A stretch of 62,891 bases of DNA, counting the filler, from Globobulimina sp. (lineage: Eukaryota): NCBI GenBank assembly GCA_003354225.1. It is 14 parts of 14 records of this genome, joined end to end, with 100 filler letters (N's around TTAATTAATTAA, not from the genome) between each part and the next. Parts side by side here need not be neighbours in the genome. Positions count along the whole stretch, not along the records: positions 45,021 to 49,415 come from PIVH01001284.1; 13 more parts are not named here. One strand, given 5' to 3'. Below are positions 4,408 through 58,500 of the stretch, piece by piece (position 1 is the first letter of the stretch; every line of letters begins with the position of its first letter). The translations under genes were made by a program, and so were the position numbers. Under the pieces are notes generated by a model, which worked only from the letters and a program-made list of their open reading frames with translations, had not been told where the DNA came from and made no database searches.

Positions 4408-4507
4408 NNNNNNNNNNNNNNNNNNNNNNNNNNNNNNNNNNNNNNNNNNNNTTAATTAATTAANNNNNNNNNNNNNNNNNNNNNNNNNNNNNNNNNNNNN
4501 NNNNNNN
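4408..4507. other. Artificial contig spacer
   Basis: 44 N + TTAATTAATTAA + 44 N. Confidence 0.99.
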
Positions 4508-7500
4508 TTTCAATGAGTAATTTCGCGAAGATTGCGTCGAATGGCCGCCATTTATCCCGTTCTCGTCGCTCAACTCCGGTCTATTTATCTGTTGATCGTA
4601 CGGAGAGTGCACGTGACCGAATATGTGCGCCGACGGCGAGTACACTTTCCTGGGCGAAGCCGCATGCAATTTATTCCGCGACTTCCTCCGTTTGCTTTTG
4701 TTTATATTGACATTCTCGTCCTGCCGCGGTGTGGGCGTGTTTTTGGTGATAAAATCTTCGATTTGCTTACTAATCTCAATCGATTCGATATCGGTGTTGA
4801 TTTCTGGCACAAACTGCGCCATTCGCTTGGTGTAACCTTTTTTTTTGTGGATCTCGACAGAATCATCATCTGTAACGACCGCATTCTGCCCTTCCAACTC
4901 GACTGCATTCACAGCGCCAGCAACGGCGTTCAGTTTATGCATTATATCCTTGTCAATGTCGAGAGATTCATTGATTAAATTCTCGCGGTTCTCAATCTCC
5001 TCATTAATTAACATGGAACTCGCGGACAAATTATCCATATCATCCATATCCTCGCTATCCACATCATTATCATTCTCATTCTCATTGTCGTTCCTAATTT
5101 GCGTCGAAGATAGCTGTGGTATCAGGTCGATATTCATAATATTCATATTATTCAAACTCGACATGGAGCTTTTTCTGTGCTGCTGCATCTCTTCATTTTC
5201 TCTGTGCTGCTTATCCGACGCCACAGAACCTACACTCTCCAATGAATGATAATCTTTCATCACCGGACGGGGCACTGTGTGCACACAGCTCTTGTACGTC
5301 GGGGATGGTGTTTGCGACAATGAGCTGTGACTGTGGCTGTGAGCCGACTGCAGCGCAGACATTGCATCTTGTGAACCGGGGCTGGGCCCAGAACCCGGCG
5401 GTTTGGCCAACAGTTCCTGCGATTTCTCATCCTCCAACTTCTTCAATTCCTCGATGCTGATACATTCTTCTTCGATGTCGTCTTCATCCAATTCCGGCTC
5501 CGTCGCGTGAATATTGCCCGTGGTTTGCATCAATTTGTTTAGTTCGCGCACATTCAGCTTCATCCGGTCATGGACGGTGCTGGCATCGCGGTTGTGTTTG
5601 GTCGGAGGCGCTGTGATGCCATATTTCTGCGCCGAAATGGGCGTAATTGAGCTCTGTTTGTCGCCGCGGGATAATATATCCTTGATTTCCAAATCGCCCA
5701 TACCATCGTCTTCCGCACTATGCTCAGCGTCGCCTGTCTTTTTACGCTCGTTTTTGGAGATTTCCTCCTCAAAGTCGAACATGGTGGGCGTGGTCGCCTT
5801 TTTATTCTCTGGTTGCGGTGTATCCATATCACTGACCAACTCATGTCCATCTAAATAGAGATATCCATCTTTATGTTCATCGTTAAATTCGTTATCCAGC
5901 TCCGGTACCGGTGACCGTGACATAGATTTAATATCCGTCAATGTGCCTCTTTTTCTATGTTGCAAATGCGCAGTATCCTCACGACTGTGTCTGGTCGGTG
6001 GCGTCGCTTAATTGTTCATATTTGTTTTATATAATAAAAAATCAGATATTTTATGCGTTTCCAGAAACGTTTTCAGAATATATTATTTTTTATGTGCCAC
6101 ACCTAAATCATACGATTGTAGTCCAATTTCACCGGTATCGTAATTCTGTAATTTGGGTACTTTACATTCATGACCGCCACTATGCGCACTATGATTGGAG
6201 TCATTGGAGTCATTACACTCCAAATCTAAAATTGCTGCATCTCCTTCATCCCTGCCATCGCCATCCGATCCATTATCATTCACAGGCGTCATCTCATTCT
6301 CTTCATCTCTCTCAATGAGCAGTCCTGAGCACCCCAATGGTAACAATAACTTATCCGCTTTCCCCATACTCTTCACATTCACCGGAGCATTGCCAGAATC
6401 ATTCGAATCCGTATCACTTGCTTCAAACTCGTGGTCCGTAGACACACTGCTCGACTCCTCGCAGGACTCAGCATCGTCACTCATCGCATACTCACTCGAG
6501 CTCCCAATATCGGTGTTATTTGGATTCAAATGCATGTCGTACCCAATACCGTGATTGATAGATATCGGTGAAGTACGCCCATTATTCTCCTCTGTCGCGT
6601 TATGTTCCCATGGCGCTTGATATGGATCTACATCGTCATCATAATTCCGCGTAGACGAACGACTCAAACCGCCTTTTTTCTTACGTTTTGGTGTTTTATT
6701 TTTTTTATTTTTATCATCGTCATCTTGCTCTTCATCAAAAGGCTGTATACCGCGCACTTTTGCTGCTTCGCGCGTAGCGGGCTGCGCTTGCTTGGCTTCC
6801 TCGTCCTCATTGAAAGGCGTGTACGGAGTGCGCGGATCGGGCGAGCCTTGCATAGATCGGGATATCTCGGATTTGTCCCCGCTCTCTGTGAGCGCACTGT
6901 GCCCGGATCGGTTGCTGCTATGTCCAGATGCATCATCCACTAAAATGGGGTTACTGCTTTGTTTGCGGATCGGTGTAGCAAACAAATTATAACTAATCTG
7001 ATCTTCGTTGGGGTCATATGGTGGCGTTAATTGTATGGTAAACCGCGCAGTGACGGGCTGCAATTGCGATAATTGGTTCGCATCGGTATTTGTATTGGTC
7101 GCTACATCGGCCGCGGTGGACGTGATTAGTGGCATTGTATTGGCCAATTCGAAGGAGTTTTTGTATGAACGTCGGGTATTATCATCCTCTTCGCTCGAAC
7201 TCTCATGATACGCCGCTTGGGTCACTTGTGGGGCCGGCATAGGTGAAGGCGTTGCGAAATCATCTGAATTGGTGGCGGATAGTTTTAAATTATGAATTTG
7301 TGTGTTGTCTAGTGTGGATTGTGTGGGTGGTGGGACGTGATGGGAGGACAAGACCGAGGATCTGCGACGATGTACTTTAGGTTTATAGCCATTGGTGATG
7401 ACTAGTTCGGTCATTTCGCCACTATCAGCACGTTCCATTTGGGGCACGTCATCTTGTTCGTTTTCAGTGTCACTTATGTCTGTATTGGAGGCGATGAATC

Positions 7501-8912
7501 CGGATTGTTGCAGTTGTATGTGTTCTAATGATTTATTTAAATGATGTATTTGTTGCTTACGAGTGGGTGGTGTTCGATCGCCAGCATTGTTATCACTATC
7601 GGTCTCTTTAAATTGTCGCAACTGTTCGCGTAAGGCTCTGTTTTTGTGTACAGACAAACAAACAGCAGATTTGCAAGTGCGTTAAGTGAATGAAAATGGC
7701 ACTTTACTGAAGAAAAAACTTTTTTTGGTTAACAAGTGACAATGGCACTTTTGCACAGCCTCAAAAAGCTCATAGATACTAAACGCTTCTTGCGATTTCC
7801 GTTTAATCGCGCCTTTTAATTGCCGATTGTTGAATAATTTAACCGTCGGATTGGGTGTTGAGTTGGGAGTCGATGAGTTTGGATTGGCTGAGATGAGAAT
7901 TTTGCCATTGTTATTAATGTCCACATACGGTACATTTTGATGATTATAAGCAAACTGATTATTATTATTATTCTGCGCATTGGCCAACGGAGGTGTTTTG
8001 GGTGGCGGTGGTTGCGGCGACGGCGTCGGTGTCATCTCTTTCATTCCCGGCGGTGTGGCCGGTATGGAGGCAAAACCAATTTGTTTGAGCGAATTGGCCA
8101 CTGCCAAATGTGCATTGTTGCTGCGCCCACCAAACTTATCAATGGTGATATGATGCAACACCGATTGCGGCGGTGTGACAGGGTTTGCATGCGCTAGATT
8201 TACATATTGAGCCATCAAATTGTTGCCTAACTGCACTTGATTCACCGCGTTCATGTTCATATTGATGGCATTGTTTAGCTCCAAATTGGATATATTTGAC
8301 AGACGATGTTGTGTGTTGAGTGCACCATTGCCGTGGATCTCCGGCGTTGGCTGTTGCCCTAACTTCATATTCAGATTCTGCATCGGATTGGATACCGAGG
8401 ACAAGCCGGATATGGAAATATTATGATTGTGCCCAAAGGCGTGTATATTGCCATTAGTGATACCATAGCCAGAGGCAAATGAGGGCTGTACTTGATGGCC
8501 ATGGCTGACTGCTTCGTATGTCGCCGTATTCGACGGTGTTTTCACGGTGTTGTTGCGTTGTGGTGGCGGTGGAGGCGTATCTGACAATGAATTGGTATAC
8601 GACACGTTTGAGCCATGCGACTTATGCGATTCCACTGCATTGATAACCTGCGCATTGCTAGTAACCGCACACGGCGATTTGTCCATTGTTTCCAACTGTT
8701 TGTTGCGCTCCGTCAACACATCAATGTGCTGTATATACTTACAATTCATCTGCGACACGGACACGATATTCTTATTTAACTGCTGTATCGTGTCCGTTAA
8801 TCGACTCAATAAGTCGGACGGCGTGATTTTCACCACATTGTCCACGCTCACAAACACGGCGTAATTCGGCTTGGTCTGGAAATGCCGCACAAACTCGCCG
8901 CAATCTTCCAAG
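4508..8912 (-). CDS. Large low-complexity, probably disordered protein; three exons, partial at both ends
   Basis: Three same-strand ORFs (7682-8911, 6083-7657, 4508-5965) separated by AT-rich gaps with GT...AG borders; S/D/E/N/P-rich, no recognised domain. Confidence 0.65.
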
Positions 8913-9012
8913 NNNNNNNNNNNNNNNNNNNNNNNNNNNNNNNNNNNNNNNNNNNNTTAATTAATTAANNNNNNNNNNNNNNNNNNNNNNNNNNNNNNNN
9001 NNNNNNNNNNNN
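8913..9012. other. Artificial contig spacer
   Basis: 44 N + TTAATTAATTAA + 44 N. Confidence 0.99.
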
Positions 9013-15453: not shown

Positions 15454-17314
15454 ATGGGCTTAATTGTAGTTTGTCCGAATAGCTGTGATGATTTCACAAA
15501 TGAAGACAGAAAGAGTACATTATTGCGACGGGGACAATCAGAATCGACATCACAATTAAACAAAGAAAAAAATGAATTTGACACAATCAACATAGAAAAA
15601 AGTGACTTTGAGCAAAATATACCAATGCGGGAACAAAATGAAAAACTAACGAATGTGTTAAACGATATTTTACAAAACATAAATCAACAAAACGAGTTAA
15701 TTAATAAACTACATTCAAGATTCAACTAAAAAGTTACAATAAACCAAAATATATATATACAGATTAAAACAGACAAGCATATCATCATTGCATTTGCAAA
15801 CAAGTACCGTCAATTATGATGAGAAAGTGACTGAAAATGCAGAACAAATTCAACCACAAAACGAAGAAGTTCTAGATGTTCAACATCGAAACACACAAAA
15901 AATCAATAAACAAACTCAAATTGAAACAAGTTCACAAATATCAGTCGATACTGTATTGAATTTGAATGATGATGAAACTGTAAAAGTACATATCAATAAC
16001 GATGAAGATGTACAGAGTCACTGTCAAACAAAACATTTGCGATTTTATACAGAAACAAACGACAATGATTTCAAAAAAGAGGATGAAAATGATGAATTAT
16101 GCACATTGCGACAATTAGTATGGTGTTTAACTGATGAATGGAGTACAACTGATGGCCAAATAAGCGTTGATGTGTTATTACTGTGTCATGCGGTATTTGC
16201 TAAAAGTAGTGATTTATTGGCATGCTTAGTGGAGCGGTTTAACAGTGCGGACATGGACGGAAATGAGAGATGGAACATACAGATCAAAGTAGGAGCCATA
16301 TTAAGTTCGTGGATGAAAACTTTGTGGGAAGATTTTGAGGCAAATCCAGATTTAATGGAGGATTTACAAGCGTTTTTTGCCTCAATTGAAACAAAGTTCA
16401 GTGGCGATAAAAGAGTACAAGTATTGTTGAAAAAAATGAAACAAATATATCTAACGTCGTATCATAGAGTTGACACAAATGAGCGACAAACTAAAATACA
16501 ACATAAAGATATCGGGAAATTGATCGGAAAACCCGCACATTTTAATATTGTCGACCAAGACGCAAAAACATTGGCGGAACAATTTACTTTAATGCATTTT
16601 AAGGCGTTTAAAGCGATAACAAAGAGGGAATGTTTAGGGCAGTCATGGAAAAAAAAAGATGGCTCTGCGCAGAATATATTAAATATGATAAAATTGTTTA
16701 ATTCCACTGTAAAATGGGTACAGATATTGATATTGACACAGCAAACACCGACACAGCGAGCACAAGTCATGAAACTATGCATTAAGATTGCGACATTTAT
16801 GAAAGAGTTTAGAAATTTTAGTGGAGCGTGCGCCTTTCATTCGGCTTTAACCAGTACACCGATACATAGATTAAAAATTGCATGGAACAAATTATCGACA
16901 GATAAAATGCAAAAATACAAAGAATTACAGAAAATATTTGGCTTTGGAAATAAAAATTGGAAGTTATTACGTAAATTACATCGGGAAGCTCATGCCCCGG
17001 CGATATTGCATACGGGACTATTTCTGTCAGATTTAGTGGGCATTGATGAAGGAAATATTAATAAATTAAAAGATGGTCAAGTGAATTTTAAAAAATTATT
17101 AAAATTACATCAAACAATTGGTACAATTTCTATGTACCAACAAGAAGAGTATCAATTTAAAGAGAATTTGTTAATACAATCGGTGATTGAACAAGACTTT
17201 AAAGGGCAGGAGGAAGTCGATGATGATTTGATGTTTAAAATGTCATCTTCTGTAAAAGCATCAGCTCAGGCTTCTGTACAAAAACGAAAACAAGGATTGT
17301 TTGAAGGACTTTGA
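15454..17314 (+). CDS. RasGEF paralogue (REM + CDC25); predicted intron 15696-15762
   Basis: CDC25 region nearly identical in protein to 13634-15185; a 67-nt GT-AG intron joins ORFs 15454 and 15788 in frame. Confidence 0.88.
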
Positions 17315-40547: not shown

Positions 40548-43500
40548 ATGTCTTTGTTATTGACTAATGACAAAACCCACAAGAAGGCCATGTCCAGCAG
40601 AAGTTTGCCCTCAATTCCAAACATTAAATCCGCCGCTTTTGAGATGCACGTGCATAAAACAAAAGAGCAAGAAACCAGAGAACGTGAAAATAGGCGAGAG
40701 AGGGCCACGCAGGAACTAATAAACTCTGAGACACAGTACAACATACTCTTAGCACTGTTAATGAAACACTATGTTTTACCATTACAAGATTATAAGACCA
40801 TAACCATGGATCAACACAATACCTTATTTCCTCAATTACAATCTGTCACACATTTATCTGACAATTTCTTAGCTGCACTGCAACAAAGAAGAGCCAAATG
40901 GGATGCAAACACTACCAAATTATCCGATTTATTTGACACATTTATTCCATATTTTCGAATGTATCAAGATCTCATTAACAATCGAGCAGAGACTGTTGAA
41001 TTATTAAACAAATTAAATCAGAAAACAAAATGGATTTCCTTCTGTCAAAAAGTTGGACCACGTTGCCAACGAATTTCATTATCAGAGTATATATTATATT
41101 CTTCTTTTTTTCTGTCGAATATATGATATAATACATAGTTTATTGGCGTTACCAACTCAACATTTGGTAAAATATGATGATATTTTGTCGCAAATATTGA
41201 CCAATACGTCTGTTAATCACATCGATTATGACAATTTACGCAAATCGCACCAATCATTCAATGAAACGGTGCAATTAATTAACGAGAAAATGATCGATTA
41301 TGATCGGAGACAGAATGTATGTAAAATCGAGAGGAAATTCAAAGACGATGTCAAGTTGTTGGAGCCGCACAGATCCTTTATTTGCGAAGGTAAATTATGG
41401 AAAATATCTGCTCACACAACCAAGGATCGGTTGTATCATTTCTTTTTGTTTAATGATTTATTGATTTATGCCTCATCCTTTGGACAAAAATATAAAATCC
41501 ATCACATGTTACCAATAAATAACAAGTTCAAAGTCGAGTGGTTTAACCACGCGAAAAAATATGGAACAGACAAAAATGGTCGGATTTTTTGTATAAAATC
41601 TGAGATAAAATCGTTTGTGGTATATGCGGAAACCGTTAATTTAGCCGTAGAGTGGGTATGGATTCTCATATTTATTGTGCTCGGCGAAAAAACAAAAACA
41701 AATACACATAACAAAAAGGTGAAGCAGTTGAAACAATGTGAAAGCAATCAAAATCGGCCCGAAGTAGCGACCTCCAGAGCTGCCAAAAAACTCGCAATTC
41801 CCAGACATGTCAAATATATCTCGGCTGAAACTTTGCCAGTTTGGGTCCCCGATTCTCACGCAAAGCAATGTGCTATTTGTAGTGGGAAGTTTACTGTGAC
41901 AAAACGAAGGTATTTACTTACATTAAAATGAATATTATATAGTCTGAGAAACGAATTTATAATTTATACAAGGCATCATTGTCGAAAATGTGGTGAGTTG
42001 GTTTGTGGCAAATGCAGTAAGTATAAGGTGGCAAATAAGGATGGCGTTCGACAGAGAGCCTGCAAAAGCTGTTATTGTGCCGTTAATCCATCCCATTCGT
42101 CGCCAGATAAAGCAGATAAATGGCAAGTTAGTGATGGCTTCCCTCAATTCCCTGCAATGGAAATAAGCCACGCAATGAAAATGGAAAGTAATTCATGGAT
42201 GTTTGAGTGTGAATTCATGGAAATGGAAAGTTCGAGCTGTGAATCAGATGCATCAGATTTCGAAAATGAAATAAAAGTACTTTACGGTTTGCCATATTAT
42301 GTGGAAACAGAAGATTATGAGAGTATATTTGATCAGTTTGGTGACGGAGTGGGAACATATATGTTAATCCCAGCTATTATGGATAAAGATATCTATTATA
42401 CTGTCAATTTAGTAGTTTATACAGAAAATGGATTTGATTTGTTTAAGGTATGTAGTAAAGGAAGCAAATAATTTGAATTAGAATATTCGCTGTATACATA
42501 ATTACATAATTACATATATTCGTTGTTTGTGCATTATTTGCTTCCCATACTGCCTTATTTACGTTAATCACAGATCAGTTTATTGGAAAAGAAAAGAATG
42601 GTCTTTAGATTGGAAACTAAACGCATGAAAAAAATTGACTTTAATTCAATGGATAAGTTATTACAATATCTACAAAGAAAAGAGAATGTTTCATTTAGTT
42701 ATCCGATACAAAGGATTAATATCGAAGTAACGGCTGAACATCAAATCAATTCGTATCCAAAAGCAAAAGCAATCTATGACTATGAGAGCAAAGAAGATGA
42801 GGATCTCACATTTAAGGTATATAATTAATTCATACTAATTTGTACACAAAATTAAAAATAATATGTGATGCAGACCGGAGATGTAATTTATGTGATCGAT
42901 AAAAGTGATCCATACGGATGGTGGCAAGGGATGATTGGAAATAGAAAAGGATTATTCCCCTCAAACTATGTTCAATTCATCGATGCAAACATGAATATAA
43001 ACATCGATGACAATGATATGGATGATGAGAAAGTGGACCATTTATATGTACATAAGAATAGCTATAGCAATCGGACCATGATTGAACACAACCATATCAA
43101 TATGACATTGATTGAACATGAGATATCGATGGATATCGGCGCCGAATTCGAATTAGCGATTATTGACGAAATCAAAGAGAATGAAATTGAAACAGTGGAT
43201 GAATTTGGCAATGATTGGGCCAAAATGGACGGAGCAACCCGGTATTTTTATAATTTCTTAGCAGATAATAACTTGGAGAGATATTTTGATAAATTTCGAG
43301 AGAATGAATGTTGTGATATTCGCGATATTGAGTATTTAATCGAAGATATTGATTTTTTGACCAATGAGATTGGAATGAAAAACCGCATTCATAGGAAAAA
43401 GTTATTGGGGGAATCGCGGAAATTAAAATGTAAAATGGATGTTTTTAAAGACATCAATATCATCCCACATGTTTTGGTACAAAAATTAATAAAATCTGGT

Positions 43501-45020: not shown

Positions 45021-45022
45021 GT

Positions 45023-45640
45023 GGGGTCAGTAAGGATGATAATGTGATCAAAGCCATCATACCGAACATGAAAGATAGTGACAGCGGATCCAATCACAAT
45101 AAACATAATAAATCAACGTTGTCGATATTGGCGAGGGCCAGGGATCGCGGTCATTCGTCGGGCTCTCCATCGTATCCATCGTATAAAATCATGGCAAATA
45201 AGTTGACACCAAAACAGATTCGAGCCAGCATTCGATTGTATGATAAGTTATCACGGCTGCAAACGGAGGAGGATAGCTATAAATTGTTGGCCTTGTCATT
45301 GTGTAGGAGGTTAAAACAAGACGGCGCAAATTATAATTTTCAGCATCCGAAATATAACGGGAACAGTATATTGATGCTTTGCTGCCAGAATAATGTTGAG
45401 ATTATTATCACATATTTTTGTTTGAAGCTAGCACCGCAAGAGATTGATTTTAATTTGATTAATAACGAAGGGAATAACGCATTGATGATTGCGATTTTGA
45501 ACAAGAATGTAAGTAATGAGGTTATTCAATTGATTTCGGATAAAACTACGGATAAATTGTTAATGAATCATAATGGACAGACGACGGTGCAGTTAGCGCA
45601 GAAAATGGATAGAAATGATTTAATTGCATGTTTACAATGA
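45023..45640 (+). CDS. Ankyrin-repeat protein, C-terminal part
   Basis: NGNSILMLCC, EGNNALMIAI and NGQTTVQLA ankyrin motifs. Confidence 0.8.
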   Translation, partial: GVSKDDNVIKAIIPNMKDSDSGSNHNKHNKSTLSILARARDRGHSSGSPSYPSYKIMANKLTPKQIRASIRLYDKLSRLQTEEDSYKLLALSLCRRLKQDGANYNFQHPKYNGNSILMLCCQNNVEIIITYFCLKLAPQEIDFNLINNEGNNALMIAILNKNVSNEVIQLISDKTTDKLLMNHNGQTTVQLAQKMDRNDLIACLQ

Positions 45641-45802
45641 TATACAATTATTATATATTATACTTTTTACATTGTTTGAAACTTGTTCTGTTTCTGTTTC
45701 TTTCTCGTACCTTGTTTTATGTTGTTTTAAACAGCGTTATAATGACAAACTATTCAAAGCCCCTGTTTTATTCTACTCAAGTTTTATCTAAAGTTATCTA
45801 AT

Positions 45803-48800
45803 ATGGATGCGCCTATTGATTTAACTATGGATGATGATGATGATCTCAAGGGTGACAGTCACAGTGACGATGTTGTTTTTTTATATGAAACCAAAAACAA
45901 TAATCATAATACAAACAACGCACACAACGGAAGACGCACGGTCCGAGACTGGGATAACAACGCTTCATTGTTGCAATTCCATTTATTCCAACCACGACGC
46001 CGATACAATAACTACGATCGTTCAAACTCATTACATAACAACAGCAACAATAATAATCGACCAAACTCATTTAATAGTAACAAAAACAGAAATAATAACA
46101 GCAATAATATGAAATACAAAGATTCATTGCAAAATAGTCGACATTTTACCAAACACCGTACTCTCTCTGTATCCAATGTGCCATATGCAATAAAAGCAAA
46201 TCAATTAATGGAATTTTTAAATCAAGCCCCAACTTGTTATGGTGCGGTACAAAGGGTACATTTAACATCGTATGAACCAAATAGACATAGTGGAAAAGGA
46301 AGAATATTATTCGCGTCAAGGCAGATAACGAACGATGTGTTACATTATGATGTGAACAGTCATTGTTTTATAATCAGAGGTATAGCACAGTACATTTATC
46401 ACCTTCTGTCTGTTATTTTGATTGCGTACAAACAATAGGCAGAGAATTAAAATTTAATCGTTGGAAAACAAACAAACGACCGCAAGATGATCATAATGAC
46501 GCAAAGGAGAATAAGTATGATGAAGAACATGATGCAATGTATAATTTGGGTGCCGCCACCATAATGTTTGGACATCACTCATATCCCTATGTTATAAATC
46601 AAAATCACACAGAGCCATTTGATTCCGTTGCTTTTGACTTCGACAAACGATGCATCAGAGCACAGTCAACCTTCCCCATCAGTTATTTATCAAATAATAT
46701 GGCTACACCAAAAGCGATTGAATATAGAATATCATTTAAGGATATTATAAATGAAATAACTTACTATGAAAAGGAGAATATGATGGTTTTGAATCTGTAT
46801 CACCCCTTCAAAAAATATAAGATTTTCCCAGATACACAATATGAGGATTATGACACTGAAAAAAGTTTATGTCAACGAATACAACGGTCATTGTGTGACA
46901 GTAAATTTGCACAGAATATGTTTGTTATGATCAAGTTTAAGGAGAAAGACATGGAATCGATGGAGACATACAATTGTTTTATCTCATTACAAAAGTATGA
47001 ATTACTAAAAACAACCTCAGCTCCATTTAATTGCCGATTATTATCATTGCAAGAATCGAATTGTAACAATTTCACTGTCGGTAAACCACCGGAATGGATA
47101 TATAAATTACCAGAACATATTCAATATTTGTTAGCATGTTTACACACAAAACAGCCCGCAAAATTGTCGTATTCTTCCATGAATAATGATTCTAAATTCA
47201 TTGAAATAATTAACCAATTTAGTGACAAGAATATCAATGTGCTGCTTTCAACTGCCTTGGAGCATATGTTCTGGGTCGACAATGATTATATTGATGAGCC
47301 AGCACAAGCATTGCGTCATTATATCGATCAGAAATTTAATCCAACGCACTCAAATGACATGGAATCAGGATTTGGTCTAATACGGCATGCATGGGTCTCC
47401 TTGCCAGGCTTACAATTGTTACCACCTTATCTAGAGACTACAAACCGTGTCGTACGTTGGTATCCAGCATTGACTGATCATTTTATGCGAGTCACCTTTT
47501 GTGAGTGTGACGGAGCGCGTTTGTACGGACAGTCATTAAGTACAGAAACAACGCAATACATTGTTAACGCATTAAAAAAAGGGATATTTATTGGTAAGCG
47601 GAGATATGACTTTTTAGCATTTGGCAGTTCACAATTAAATGAACAATCCGTTTGGATGTATTATGATGATGGCTTTCACCCAAATATTAGTGCAGACACT
47701 ATCAGAGCAAGAATGGGCGATTTTAGTCATATTAAATCTGTCGCAAAATATGCAGCAAGAATGGGACAATGTTTTTCCACCACAGTGGATAGTATCAAAA
47801 CGAATGATGTTGTAAAGATAAACGATGTTACGTCCGACTTTCCTGCAGCACAATATATTGATGATATATTTACCAACGTTGGCTTTGCAAAGGATTTAAT
47901 TCCCTGCAAATCACCAACGCAAATCTGTTTTTCTGATGGAGTGGGACGAATATCGCCAGCCTTTGCAAGCAAAGTGGCCCACAAATTGGGGTTAAAAGTG
48001 AGACCGTCTGCATTCCAGATACGATATGGAGGTTAGAAAGGAATGGTGGCTGTATACCCAGAATGTAAACACGACTTAGAATTGAGACCAAGTATGAACA
48101 AGTTTGAAAGTGATGATGTCATGTTTGAAGTTTGTAGATATTCGTTTTGTTCGCCTGTTTACTTAAACAGGCAAATTATAACTTTATTTGAAACAGTAAA
48201 TCCCCAGATATCCACCACAAATATATTGGTGCAAATTGCTGCCAAAGTTATTGCCAAATTGACGGAAATGAGAATGGATAGAAGCGAAGCTATTAATCAG
48301 TTGAGATTGCGATCATTTGGTAATAGTCCATTATCGCCGATATATGGATTGGTTCAATTATTACAAAATAAAATGCCAATGCGACATCCATTTATATCGA
48401 CGGCAATTGACATTTTTGTACGCTCCGAATTGAAAAGTATACAAAATAGACATCGCATTTTAATTAAAGACGGTACCTCGATATTGGGCGTCATGGACGA
48501 ATATAATGTGTTGAAAGCGAATCAAGTCTTTATTCAAATACGTTCGCCATTGATTAATAAGAATAAACTTACGCCAATCATTGGAGATGTGATAATCACT
48601 AAATGTCCAGCTTTAGCACCCGGCGATTTGCGTAAATTTGAAGCTGTTGCGACTTGTCCACAGTTAAAACATTTAAAGAATGTGGTTGTATTTAGCCAGC
48701 AAGGGATCCTATCACCGACAATGCAAATGTCTGGCTCTGATTTAGATGGTGATATATATTGGATTACATGGGACAAAATGTTGTTGAAATGTTTTGAGAA

Positions 48801-49415
48801 TATCTATAATGACAAACCATTATATTTCCCAACTCCCAAACAGAAATTGGTTGACAGTGTTACTGTTGATGAGCTACAGCAATTCTTTGTGGATTATATG
48901 CAAATGGATTGTTTGGGAATGTTAGCACATTCACATTTGGCTGTTGCTGATCAGTCACATGGTGATAGAGCAAAAAATAAGAAATGTATAATATTGGCTG
49001 TATTGAATTCGTATGCCGTCGATTATCGCAAATCGGGCACACCGGTCGACATCAAACAAGTGACGAATTGGTATGGCATAAATAACAGAGAGTCATTGTT
49101 GCCGAGGCAATTTCCATACTTTATGAGAAAATATAATTCTGTGTATGCTTCAAAATATGCGTTGGGACAAATATATAGAATATGTTTCAGAGAGTTGCGG
49201 GATGTGAGTAATTATAATAATGAGCTTCATAAAACAAAGTGTGAGAGTTTTGATACATTATTGCGGATAAATGGTTGTGAGAAATATGAGAGAGAGGCGC
49301 GGAATGTGCTCGCTCAGTATTCCTACGATATATTAGCAATAAAGAATAGATGGTGCGTCAAAACCGAAATGGAAATATGGTTAAACAGACCTTTGAGTGC
49401 TTTCAATTTATTTTG
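45803..49415 (+). CDS. Cellular (RNAi) RNA-dependent RNA polymerase, RDR-alpha-like, with N-terminal RRM-like domain; intron 46380-46438; in-frame TAG at 48034-48036; 3' truncated
   Basis: NRVVR..FMRVTF, YDFLAFGSSQL, KYAARMGQCFS, FSDGVGRIS, SAFQIRYGG*KG, LRPSMNKF, LNRQII, GVMDE, PGD, SGSDLDGD and AVDY.K.G motifs in order. Confidence 0.93.
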
Positions 49416-49515
49416 NNNNNNNNNNNNNNNNNNNNNNNNNNNNNNNNNNNNNNNNNNNNTTAATTAATTAANNNNNNNNNNNNNNNNNNNNNNNNNNNNN
49501 NNNNNNNNNNNNNNN
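49416..49515. other. Artificial contig spacer
   Basis: 44 N + TTAATTAATTAA + 44 N. Confidence 0.99.
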
Positions 49516-49583
49516 TATTGCATAGATTTGTCTCTTCTTTCATATGCTAGAATCCTGGAAAAATCTATCCTTGCACTGTCGTC

Positions 49584-49778
49584 TATGAGGTGAGAACCCT
49601 GATATTAAGATTTTCTTGAAGTGAGCTAGTCATCGTTATCACCTCACAAACGACAAATTTTTAGTTTTCTTGCCAGTTTCGTCATCGCTTTGATATTATG
49701 TGATCTAGAAATTTGTCGTTTGTCGTTTGTGAGGTGATAACAGGGATTTTAAGATTTTCACGAAGTAAGCTAGTCATC
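49584..49778 (+). repeat. Short repeat element: 144-bp tandem unit with 23-bp perfect inverted repeats; candidate non-autonomous transposon
   Basis: Inverted repeat 49635-49657 / 49719-49741; direct repeat 49605-49634 / 49749-49778 (27 of 30 identical); related copy at 9689-9785. Confidence 0.8.
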
Positions 49779-49987
49779 ATTATACTTTACTTGAAAAGTT
49801 TTCAAGTTGCCAACTTTTTATTGTATATCCTTGCACATTATACTTTGATAATAAATTGCAACAAAAAAAATGAATATTATTTAATACTAAGCAAAGAAAA
49901 ATAGATAATTATATATACTAATTTCTGTACAAAGAAAAAGAGAAATTCCTGTGAAAAAAAGGGGGAATTTCTGTAAAAGATTAAGAA

Positions 49988-58400: not shown

Positions 58401-58500
58401 NNNNNNNNNNNNNNNNNNNNNNNNNNNNNNNNNNNNNNNNNNNNTTAATTAATTAANNNNNNNNNNNNNNNNNNNNNNNNNNNNNNNNNNNNNNNNNNNN
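58401..58500. other. Artificial contig spacer
   Basis: 44 N + TTAATTAATTAA + 44 N. Confidence 0.99.

Follow-up and report, generated by a model that had tools for sequence, protein, structure and literature searches.

A single in-frame TAG in a foraminiferal-type RNA-dependent RNA polymerase gene reads as a broken allele or base error rather than a programmed switch

The closest described counterparts of the gene considered here are four RNA-dependent RNA polymerases (RdRPs) from foraminiferal transcriptomes (EukProt), namely EP01084 Bolivina argentea P046259 and P150423, and EP01083 Nonionella stella P145460 together with a sister isoform. The next-best matches, which come from sponges, early-diverging fungi, plants and Physarum, reach at most 38% identity, and going by this ranking the closest sequenced relatives of the source organism are foraminifera. 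A full-text literature search on foraminifera, RdRP and RNAi returned nothing on topic by title or abstract, and a paper reached through a search on Reticulomyxa, Argonaute and Dicer makes, in its accessible part, no mention of RdRPs. A second point of comparison is provided by the PSC pseudogenes of Sordariomycetes such as Fusarium graminearum, which, in the accessible part of their description, resemble the present case in that one TAG lies in frame in a gene that is otherwise intact and conserved (PMC10776026). The same partial source describes these TAGs as fixed and conserved across species, with the middle A edited (PMC10776026).

The window, meaning the whole stretch of DNA that was analysed, is 62,891 nt long and consists of 14 unrelated contig pieces of 4391-4407 nt each, placed in order of decreasing size. 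The pieces are joined throughout by an identical spacer of 100 nt, N44-TTAATTAATTAA-N44, which flanks the gene contig at 44921-45020 and 49416-49515. The string TTAATTAATTAA is palindromic, contains TAA in each frame and, going by its own letters, is read as a six-frame stop linker; a search of the literature for it gave no paper on contig concatenation among the matches listed. Since the window chains unrelated contigs, neighbourhood arguments across the spacers are invalid, and the gene is treated here within its own contig (Table 1).

Four public sequencing runs from the same organism or close relatives of it were compared with the window as contigs (X1, X4, X6 and X8), of which X6 and X8 are ~2-6% divergent from it and three cover position 48036; two of the runs other than X4 were tentatively taken as RNA, with no RNA library on record. 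The start codon of the RdRP is presumably the ATG at 45803, and exon 1 encodes an N-terminal region with homology to the corresponding part of the foraminiferal RdRPs, with tblastn alignments at 46112-46378 to P0002 residues 16-104 and P0003 residues 49-125. Exon 2 continues the alignment, P0002 residues 119-1115 matching 46441-49398. The joint of intron 1 (46377>46437, cut +2) is present in one contig each of runs X4 and X6, and record 2 of run X1 keeps this intron unspliced. At the 3′ end, contig arms of X4, X6 and X8 at 49397/8 continue into a translation resembling the homologues' NIK(I/L)PNLK(D/E)F. The sequence past this point in these arms has 0 matches within the window, and the C-terminal ~100 residues of the homologues likewise give no tblastn match in it; the last ~100 residues of the RdRP are missing from the window, and the contig ends inside intron 2.

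Table 1. Coordinates of the RdRP gene and its contig, counted along the window.
Feature	Position	Strand	Remarks
Gene-bearing contig	45021..49415	.	4395 nt, single; sequence outside belongs to other contigs
Exon 1	45803..46379	+	First ATG in the open frame taken as start
Intron 1	46380..46438	+	59 nt, GT (46380-81)..AG (46437-38); frame restored by splicing
Exon 2	46439..49396	+	Holds RdRP domain PF05183; profile search and tblastn
In-frame TAG, codon 725	48034..48036	+	Motif QIRYGG(stop)KGM; TAT in other runs
Catalytic DLDGD motif	48739..48753	+	Intact; 235 codons 3′ of the TAG
Intron 2, start	49397..49415	+	Donor GTGCTT; truncated by the end of contig 45021-49415

With the TAG read as X, the PF05183 profile gives one match that runs across the stop (profile 8-580 of 582, E 3.6e-150) and scores 501.9 bits against a cut-off of 23.8, the halves on either side of the TAG scoring 167.8 and 311.9 bits alone. 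The catalytic DLDGD (P0001 797-801: D797, L798, D799, G800 and D801) is invariant in 15/15 aligned sequences, and the core motif Q-I-R-x-G-G-x-K-G is present, with Q556, R558, G561, K563 and G564 invariant in the 15-sequence alignment; the stop falls on a variable x position of this motif. Judged by homology, the gene encodes a cellular RNA-dependent RNA polymerase of ordinary type, belonging to the RDR/QDE-1 family (PF05183; RDR/QDE-1/EGO-1), with a predicted role in double-stranded RNA synthesis for RNA silencing. Taken as a full-length PF05183 enzyme it has an interrupted frame, carrying the TAG and ending before its final exon or exons. Among 245 candidates for short or split gene models over the site, none reached E<=1e-20, and none of the proteins in the collection searched is an annotated fragment of this gene.

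The string TTC CAG ATA CGA TAT GGA GGT TAG AAA GGA ATG, reported by the first-pass annotation with its TAG at 48034-48036, was found exactly there (48013-48045), and this TAG is the sole stop in the spliced CDS on the contig, which spans at least 1178 codons without a frameshift. That annotation had also counted over 700 spliced codons before the stop, no other stop or shift, and an intact DLDGD downstream, all of which agree with the sequence: 724 sense codons precede the TAG once intron 1 is spliced out (a stop-to-stop listing gives 561 open codons, 46351-48036), the spliced CDS contains exactly one stop, and the motif is in place. Its figure of about 460 codons after the stop holds as regards the open frame but not as a count, since the same-frame open stretch (48037-49467, 476 codons) takes in the intron donor and the N spacer, read as X, and the genuine coding codons number 453, ending at 49396.

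Other stops in the window were considered alongside this one. A TGA at 41929 was rejected as a second premature stop: the FYVE motif KRR/HHCRKCG is split there by a 63-nt GT..AG intron, which is in frame and contains this TGA. For the same-frame ORF pairs at 7684 (TAA) and 26086 (TGA), Pfam gave no match. A further same-frame ORF pair is found at 16464 (TGA).

The letter at 48036 is T in 3/3 covering runs, giving a TAT tyrosine codon. By depth, T accounts for 30.6/30.6 in X4, for 4.99/4.99 in X8, where it is carried by one contig of depth <5, and for 14.5/23.3 in X6, where a second contig arm (record 15, depth 8.8) has a letter other than T. This minor arm of X6 may carry G, or it could instead be C (TAC, synonymous); no contig with G at 48036 is found among the matches listed for X1, X4, X6 and X8. 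Because other samples read a tyrosine codon, the TAG is best regarded as marking either a broken allele or an error in the base, rather than a programmed switch. The first-pass annotation had itself named TAT or TAC in reads or relatives as the observation that would speak against such a switch, and TAT is what the runs contain; the evidence favours its fallback, a null allele newly arisen by TAY>TAG or else a base error.

The usual form of the gene is both expressed and constrained. Record 11 of run X4 is a 3818-nt contig without intron 1 and, because this intron is skipped, represents spliced RNA; the TAT allele is thus transcribed and spliced in other samples. Across exon 2 this transcript differs from the window at 14 positions, comprising 11 synonymous changes, 2 missense changes and the 1 stop, at which the transcript reads TAT; none of the other 13 makes a stop, and the 3 that lie 3′ of the TAG are all synonymous. 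The pN/pS against this near-identical transcript is 0.045, and 2 or fewer missense changes among 13 differences have a binomial P of 1.1e-6 under neutrality. The RdRP gene is under strong purifying selection. Relaxed selection, which had been suggested from a few deviant motifs, finds no place beside this ratio and the occurrence of those motifs in all four closest proteins: KCPALAPGD is found in each (as KCPTLAPGD in P0005), and SQQGILSPT is common to them with the variants SQQGIISPT, SQQGTLSPT and SQKGILSPT. Being shared in this way, they are a clade signature and not a sign of decay.

Conditional decoding of the UAG, whether by A-to-I editing to UGG, by readthrough with Tyr or Gln, or by use of TAG as a sense codon, would make the gene a switchable RdRP. 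The frame is fully open on either side of the stop and the active site is intact, as such a switch would have it, and restorative UAG editing is known in Sordariomycetes pseudogenes, where, according to the accessible part of the source, the ancestral residue is not always restored (PMC10776026). However, the stop is not conserved, being TAT in other runs, and the difference between G and T at the third codon base is neither made nor removed by A-to-I editing. At the middle base, 48035, no difference is seen in any run among the matches listed, including among the 14 differences of the X4 transcript; the transcripts covering the site read TAT and therefore provide no test of editing on a TAG allele. 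The nearest relatives, moreover, are foraminifera and not ascomycetes, and among 14 homologues the column of the stop holds Y in 9, S in 2, and C, F and A in 1 each, with Trp in 0/14. UAG readthrough can insert tyrosine, and such an insertion would give back the ancestral residue. The fold of the 80-nt context is not stable (MFE -11.3 versus a shuffle mean of -14.1, z +0.97, with 172/200 shuffles as good or better). A search of the gene contig against Rfam gives 0 matches at E<=1, and the 3′ context of the TAG, AAA GGA, is not known as a strong readthrough context.

On the wider scale of the 62-kb window, which contains 0 tRNA genes, five stops have at least 90 open codons on each side and the one at 48034 is the only TAG among them, one of the others being the TGA within the intron at 41929; TAG also terminates 7/30 ORFs of at least 200 codons, one of which stops 15 codons past an SGL domain (profile to 243 of 246). 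A sense reading of TAG was rejected on this lack of recurrent in-frame TAG within the 62 kb and on its use as a terminator there, a readthrough stop on the non-conserved stop and the want of an Rfam match or stable local fold, and a fungal-type editing site on a TAG that is not fixed, on Y or C in the four closest proteins and on the absence of a hairpin loop. The editing or readthrough switch put forward in the first-pass annotation is contradicted by TAT in 3/3 covering runs, by tyrosine in 9/14 homologues and by tryptophan in none; conditional decoding is very improbable, and the tempting story of an RNAi polymerase activated conditionally by RNA editing is removed.

The explanation preferred here, with moderate confidence, is a nonsense SNP (TAT>TAG), private or heterozygous, in an RdRP gene that is otherwise under selection and expressed. 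At a conserved tyrosine codon, the third base would have changed from T to G in a single step (Tyr725>stop), as an unprogrammed change private to one haplotype or assembly and, if the G is real, as a recent null allele that is heterozygous or strain-specific. Translation would end after 724 residues, within the first of the conserved motifs that make up the catalytic core, and the product would therefore be without the DLDGD active site and presumably null, with function supplied by the intact allele or by paralogues. Run X1, which is the best match to the window (0.95 of sampled words) and may be its source sample, has a word depth of ~4-6 across the gene and shows two haplotypes near the site, at 47367, 47376, 47403 and 47421 (each 3.8/9.5). 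Its contigs end exactly at 48035 and resume exactly at 49063, adjoining the G/T sites 48036 and 49062, and they leave 48036-48058 (23 bases) and 48993-49062 uncovered, holes that by themselves say nothing on the letter. The G of the window at 49062 is confirmed independently by X6 (0/18.7 other), and for this reason the X1 breaks look like real polymorphic branch points; we infer that this best-matching sample has both letters at 48036. A metagenome scan for 32 nt flanking the site found 0 exact matches, and in a protein-guided scan 18 stretches fit the pattern with 0 confirmed.

The same X1 contigs bear on whether the G exists at all. A base-call or assembly error, by which the DNA would be TAT with no stop and the G at 48036 would have arisen falsely in a fragmentary assembly of low depth, agrees with the unanimous T of the covering runs and the lack of a G contig among the matches listed, and equally with a gene that has no second defect (one stop, 0 frameshifts, 1178 codons). 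Because the assembly is in contigs of only ~4.4 kb and X1 depth is about 5, such an error is quite possible, if short of probable. A lone singleton read error is usually discarded, leaving the contig unbroken, however, and a contig end exactly at 48035 is the assembly-graph branch expected with two letters in the reads. The break pattern recurs at 49062, where the letter of the window has its confirmation in X6, and X6 itself has the second, non-T arm at 48036.

Two variants over parts of the gene, seen in both X1 and X6, could also stem from a recent duplicate, the TAG lying in a just-inactivated, near-identical paralogue (~99.5%) and the TAT transcripts coming from a functional sister copy. 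The closest homologues form a multi-member family, one foraminiferal transcriptome having two distinct proteins and a second one a pair that look like isoforms, but the window contains only one RdRP locus. Apart from the stop, almost all of the 13 differences from X4 are synonymous, a pattern that agrees at least as well with allelic or strain variation of a gene under selection as with a duplicate in decay; a duplicate is thus unlikely. More doubtful still is a reading in which the TAG allele would be real and old, common to the window and to the diverged X6 through its non-T arm, with the null of one RdRP paralogue persisting over long times as a polymorphism of a multinucleate protist and perhaps tolerated, or partly rescued, by near-cognate UAG readthrough restoring the ancestral tyrosine. 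If that were so, the polymorphism would tune the dosage of an RNA-silencing enzyme and would still not be an editing switch. A nonsense SNP or base error, to return to the two readings of greater weight, is routine in a fragmentary assembly, and with the usual allele intact and expressed it carries little biological weight.

Set against the known systems, this RdRP is unlike the PSC pseudogenes in that its TAG is not shared by the other samples, the third base varies, the organism is not an ascomycete and no hairpin was found around the site. Fungal QDE-1, including Neurospora QDE-1 (PDB 2j7n) and other QDE-1 structures, belongs to the same superfamily and matches over the catalytic segment (query 696-818, E 1.7e-18), but its sequence aligns at the DxDGD core only and is much more distant than the RDR1/RDR2 type. 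Arabidopsis RDR2 (PDB 7eu0, 7roz), of the plant RDR1/RDR2 type, shares PF05183, the DLDGD motif and QIRYGGYKG at the site (7eu0_M: 309 bits, phmmer E 5.1e-91, query 339-983), however identity of the plant type to this RdRP is ~28-30%. In place of the KCPALAPGD and MSGSDLDGD of the foraminiferal clade, plants carry NPCLHPGD and CSG(S/G)DLDGD, and accessory Pfam domains of the plant type occur on the plant matches with none listed for the four closest proteins. The foraminiferal RdRPs are 66-71% identical over the RdRP domain (search) and 55-64% over the whole alignment, with the N-terminal region and the clade motifs KCP(A/T)LAPGD and SQ(Q/K)G..SPTM.M(S/A)GSDLDGD in common; they differ in being full length (1159-1258 aa) and in having a sense codon at the site, which reads QIRYGGYKGMV in 3/4 and QIRYAGCKGMV in 1/4. 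The comparison shows that these foraminiferal RdRPs make up a distinct clade, marked by substitutions of their own within otherwise near-universal motifs.

The first-pass annotation reported a single in-frame TAG inside an RdRP gene, and this observation holds: the spliced coding sequence on the contig (3535 nt, 1178 codons) contains one stop, at codon 725, and the Pfam RdRP match (PF05183) spans it. The eleven codons quoted there lie at 48013-48045 and the TAG at 48034-48036, preceded in a stop-to-stop listing by 561 open codons and followed by an open stretch in the same frame. In a profile search with X placed at the stop, the match is uninterrupted over profile positions 8-580 of 582 (E 3.6e-150; 501.9 bits, cut-off 23.8), and each half of the product, on either side of the TAG, matches its own portion of the profile. 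The closest solved structure, Arabidopsis RDR2 (7eu0_M, E 5.1e-91), reads QIRYGGYKG at the place of the stop. The frame clearly belongs to a real gene rather than to an ORF arising by chance.

Contigs from public sequencing runs (coded X1, X4, X6 and X8) helped to define the gene model. The 59 nt between 46377 and 46437 (GT..AG, cut +2) are missing from the X4 and X6 contigs, which identifies them as intron 1; the X1 contig reads across this intron unspliced. The X4, X6 and X8 contigs depart from the window at 49397/8, with a continuation that translates like the NIK(I/L)PNLK(D/E)F of homologues and has 0 matches within the window with up to 3 mismatches permitted. The last ~100 residues of the homologues have no match anywhere in the window, and the contig therefore ends within intron 2. 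An ankyrin-repeat gene (Ank_2, E 8.9e-08; 45023-45640, + strand) is represented at the start of the contig by its 3′ end, and its TGA precedes the RdRP start codon by ~160 nt.

Coordinates of the RdRP contig, its gene model, the joining spacers and the base read at 48036 in the compared runs
Feature	Position	Strand	Detail
RdRP contig	45021-49415		no true neighbours beyond these limits
Exon 1	from first ATG at 45803	+	start codon inferred
Intron 1	46380-46438	+	59 nt, GT..AG
Exon 2	46439-49396	+	gene model
DLDGD	48739-48753	+	downstream of stop
Spacers	4408-4507, 8913-9012, ... 58401-58500		N44-TTAATTAATTAA-N44
X4 (organism B)	48036		G>T; T depth 30.6, total 30.6
X8 (organism A, other sample)	48036		G>T; T 4.99, total 4.99; one contig, depth <5, possible error
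X6 (organism C)	48036		G>T; T 14.5, total 23.3
X1 (organism A, best holder, 0.95 of words)	48036		depth 0, no cover

Eight of the ten runs listed by the run search contain part of the stretch, and four were compared at 48036. The stop is not conserved: T at this position, giving TAT (Tyr), is read in all three runs that cover it. The spliced 3818-nt contig of X4 (record 11) differs from the window at 14 sites over 46437-49398, comprising 11 synonymous changes, two missense changes (T>R, T>I) and the change from stop to Tyr. These are strain or allele differences rather than RNA editing, as their mixed kinds (C>G, T>A, A>C and transitions) show. The pN/pS ratio of 0.045 between the window and the X4 transcript, with two or fewer missense changes of 13 (binomial P 1.1e-6 under neutrality), indicates constraint. 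Downstream of the stop, the three differences from X4 are all synonymous, in a very small sample where divergence accrued partly on the intact lineage.

None of the compared contigs from the four runs is shown to carry the G at 48036, and an artefactual G, a base error, is a serious possibility to which we give less than even weight. We lean slightly towards a real nonsense allele. X1 has two haplotypes nearby, with four linked sites at 47367-47421 at a depth of 3.8 of 9.5, the minor letters of which are identical to those of X4; this sample is therefore heterozygous, heterokaryotic or mixed. The four linked SNPs, within 47337-47451, are synonymous. Contigs end at variant sites when an assembly graph branches, and the X1 contigs stop exactly at 48035 and resume exactly at 49063, adjoining G/T sites at 48036 and 49062; X6 gives independent confirmation of the window's G at 49062 (0 of 18.7 other). 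However, X1 depth is just ~5, and its hole at the site proves nothing. X6 contigs likewise end at 48035 and resume at 48067, with 60-nt arms spanning 48006-48065 and 48037-48096; two variant sites separated by 30 nt would fit this pattern. At 48036 an X6 arm (record 15, depth 8.8) is non-T, however its letter may be C (TAC). A near-identical, pseudogenised paralogue carrying the TAG is improbable.

The first-pass annotation proposed conditional activation of the RdRP through A-to-I editing or readthrough; together with TAG as a sense codon, such recoding is very unlikely. Editing would target the middle A, yet the third base is the variable one, the TAG is unconserved, and the host lies outside the ascomycetes; the 80-nt context also folds worse than shuffles (z +0.97). 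Across 14 aligned homologues the stop column holds Y in nine, S in two, and C, F and A once each, with W in 0. Fungal editing does not restore the ancestral residue every time (PMC10776026), so the absence of Trp is not decisive alone. Readthrough is likewise disfavoured by an unconserved stop in a context lacking local structure, and no Rfam element was found on the RdRP contig at E<=1. Against TAG as a sense codon, the RdRP's is the lone TAG among five stops in the window with at least 90 open codons on both sides, and TAG terminates seven of the 30 ORFs of at least 200 codons, one of them 15 codons beyond the point where an SGL domain profile ends. No tRNA genes were found in the window.

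If the nonsense allele is real, translation would yield 724 residues and break off within the Q-I-R-x-G-G-x-K-G motif, and the product would lose the remaining core including DLDGD, 235 codons downstream; it is predicted to be null. With an intron downstream of the stop, the transcript might be a target of nonsense-mediated decay. RdRP function would be provided by an intact TAT allele or by paralogues. As a candidate for recoding the site holds little interest, because a nonsense SNP or a base error in one contig is ordinary. Searches of metagenome contigs gave nothing additional on the RdRP site, nor did a search of short protein fragments on the gene.

The 26 N runs of the window form 13 pairs, each an identical 100-nt unit around the 12-mer TTAATTAATTAA, which is its own reverse complement and supplies TAA in every frame; a literature search for this string gave nothing relevant among the matches listed. 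The 14 pieces become progressively shorter, from 4407 to 4391 nt, and range in GC from 0.285 to 0.458. The window therefore appears to be a set of size-sorted, unrelated contigs of a fragmentary assembly, artificially joined, so gene order across a spacer carries no meaning, and each piece is cut at both ends. The highest-GC piece (4508-8912, 0.458) holds at 6083-8911 (- strand) two long same-frame ORFs of 409 and 532 codons, with one TAA (7682-7684) between them. Both are without a Pfam match, and the TAA could belong to an in-frame intron, or the pair to a mobile element or to a further interrupted gene. In the contig following the RdRP, two alike ~70-nt copies (…GAGGTGA.AAC…GATTTT…AAGT.AGCTAGTCATC.TTAT…) were seen by eye at 49560-49790, flanking a short inverted stretch (CACAAACGACAAATT / AAATTTGTCGTTTG), and may be a small repeat or MITE-like element. 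A TGA at 41929 was rejected as a premature stop, lying within an in-frame 63-nt GT..AG intron (41911-41973, + strand) that splits the FYVE zinc-finger motif KRR|HHCRKCG of a RhoGEF/PH/FYVE gene.

The four best-matching proteins share 66-71% identity across the RdRP domain and come from EukProt transcriptomes of foraminifera; two belong to Bolivina argentea and one, P0003, was identified by look-up as Nonionella stella, while P0004 has its C-terminal part in common with P0003. The remaining matches listed (sponge, Mortierellomycetes, Entomophthorales, plant RDR1, Physarum) reach at most 38%, and on this basis the host is most likely a foraminiferan or close relative, with an ascomycete disfavoured. 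Among the papers listed by a full-text search on foraminifera, RdRP and RNA interference, none concerned foraminiferal RdRPs by title or abstract. Within 48580-48760 (+ strand), foraminiferal RdRPs carry KCP(A/T)LAPGD where NPC(L/F)HPGD is near-universal, and SQ(Q/K)G..SPTM.M(S/A)G in place of P.(K/R)G.RP..ECSG just upstream of DLDGD. The first-pass annotation read KCPALAPGD and QQGILS as possible decay; instead, KCP(A/T)LAPGD and SQ(Q/K)G(I/T)(L/I)SPT recur in all four foraminiferal proteins, (N/C/P)PC(L/F)HPGD occupies the former position in ten more distant sequences, and both replacements separate 5/5 clade members from those ten, marking them as a clade signature. Profile match, DxDGD and core motif all place the gene in the cellular RdRP family, and its nearest relatives are foraminiferal and transcript-derived.
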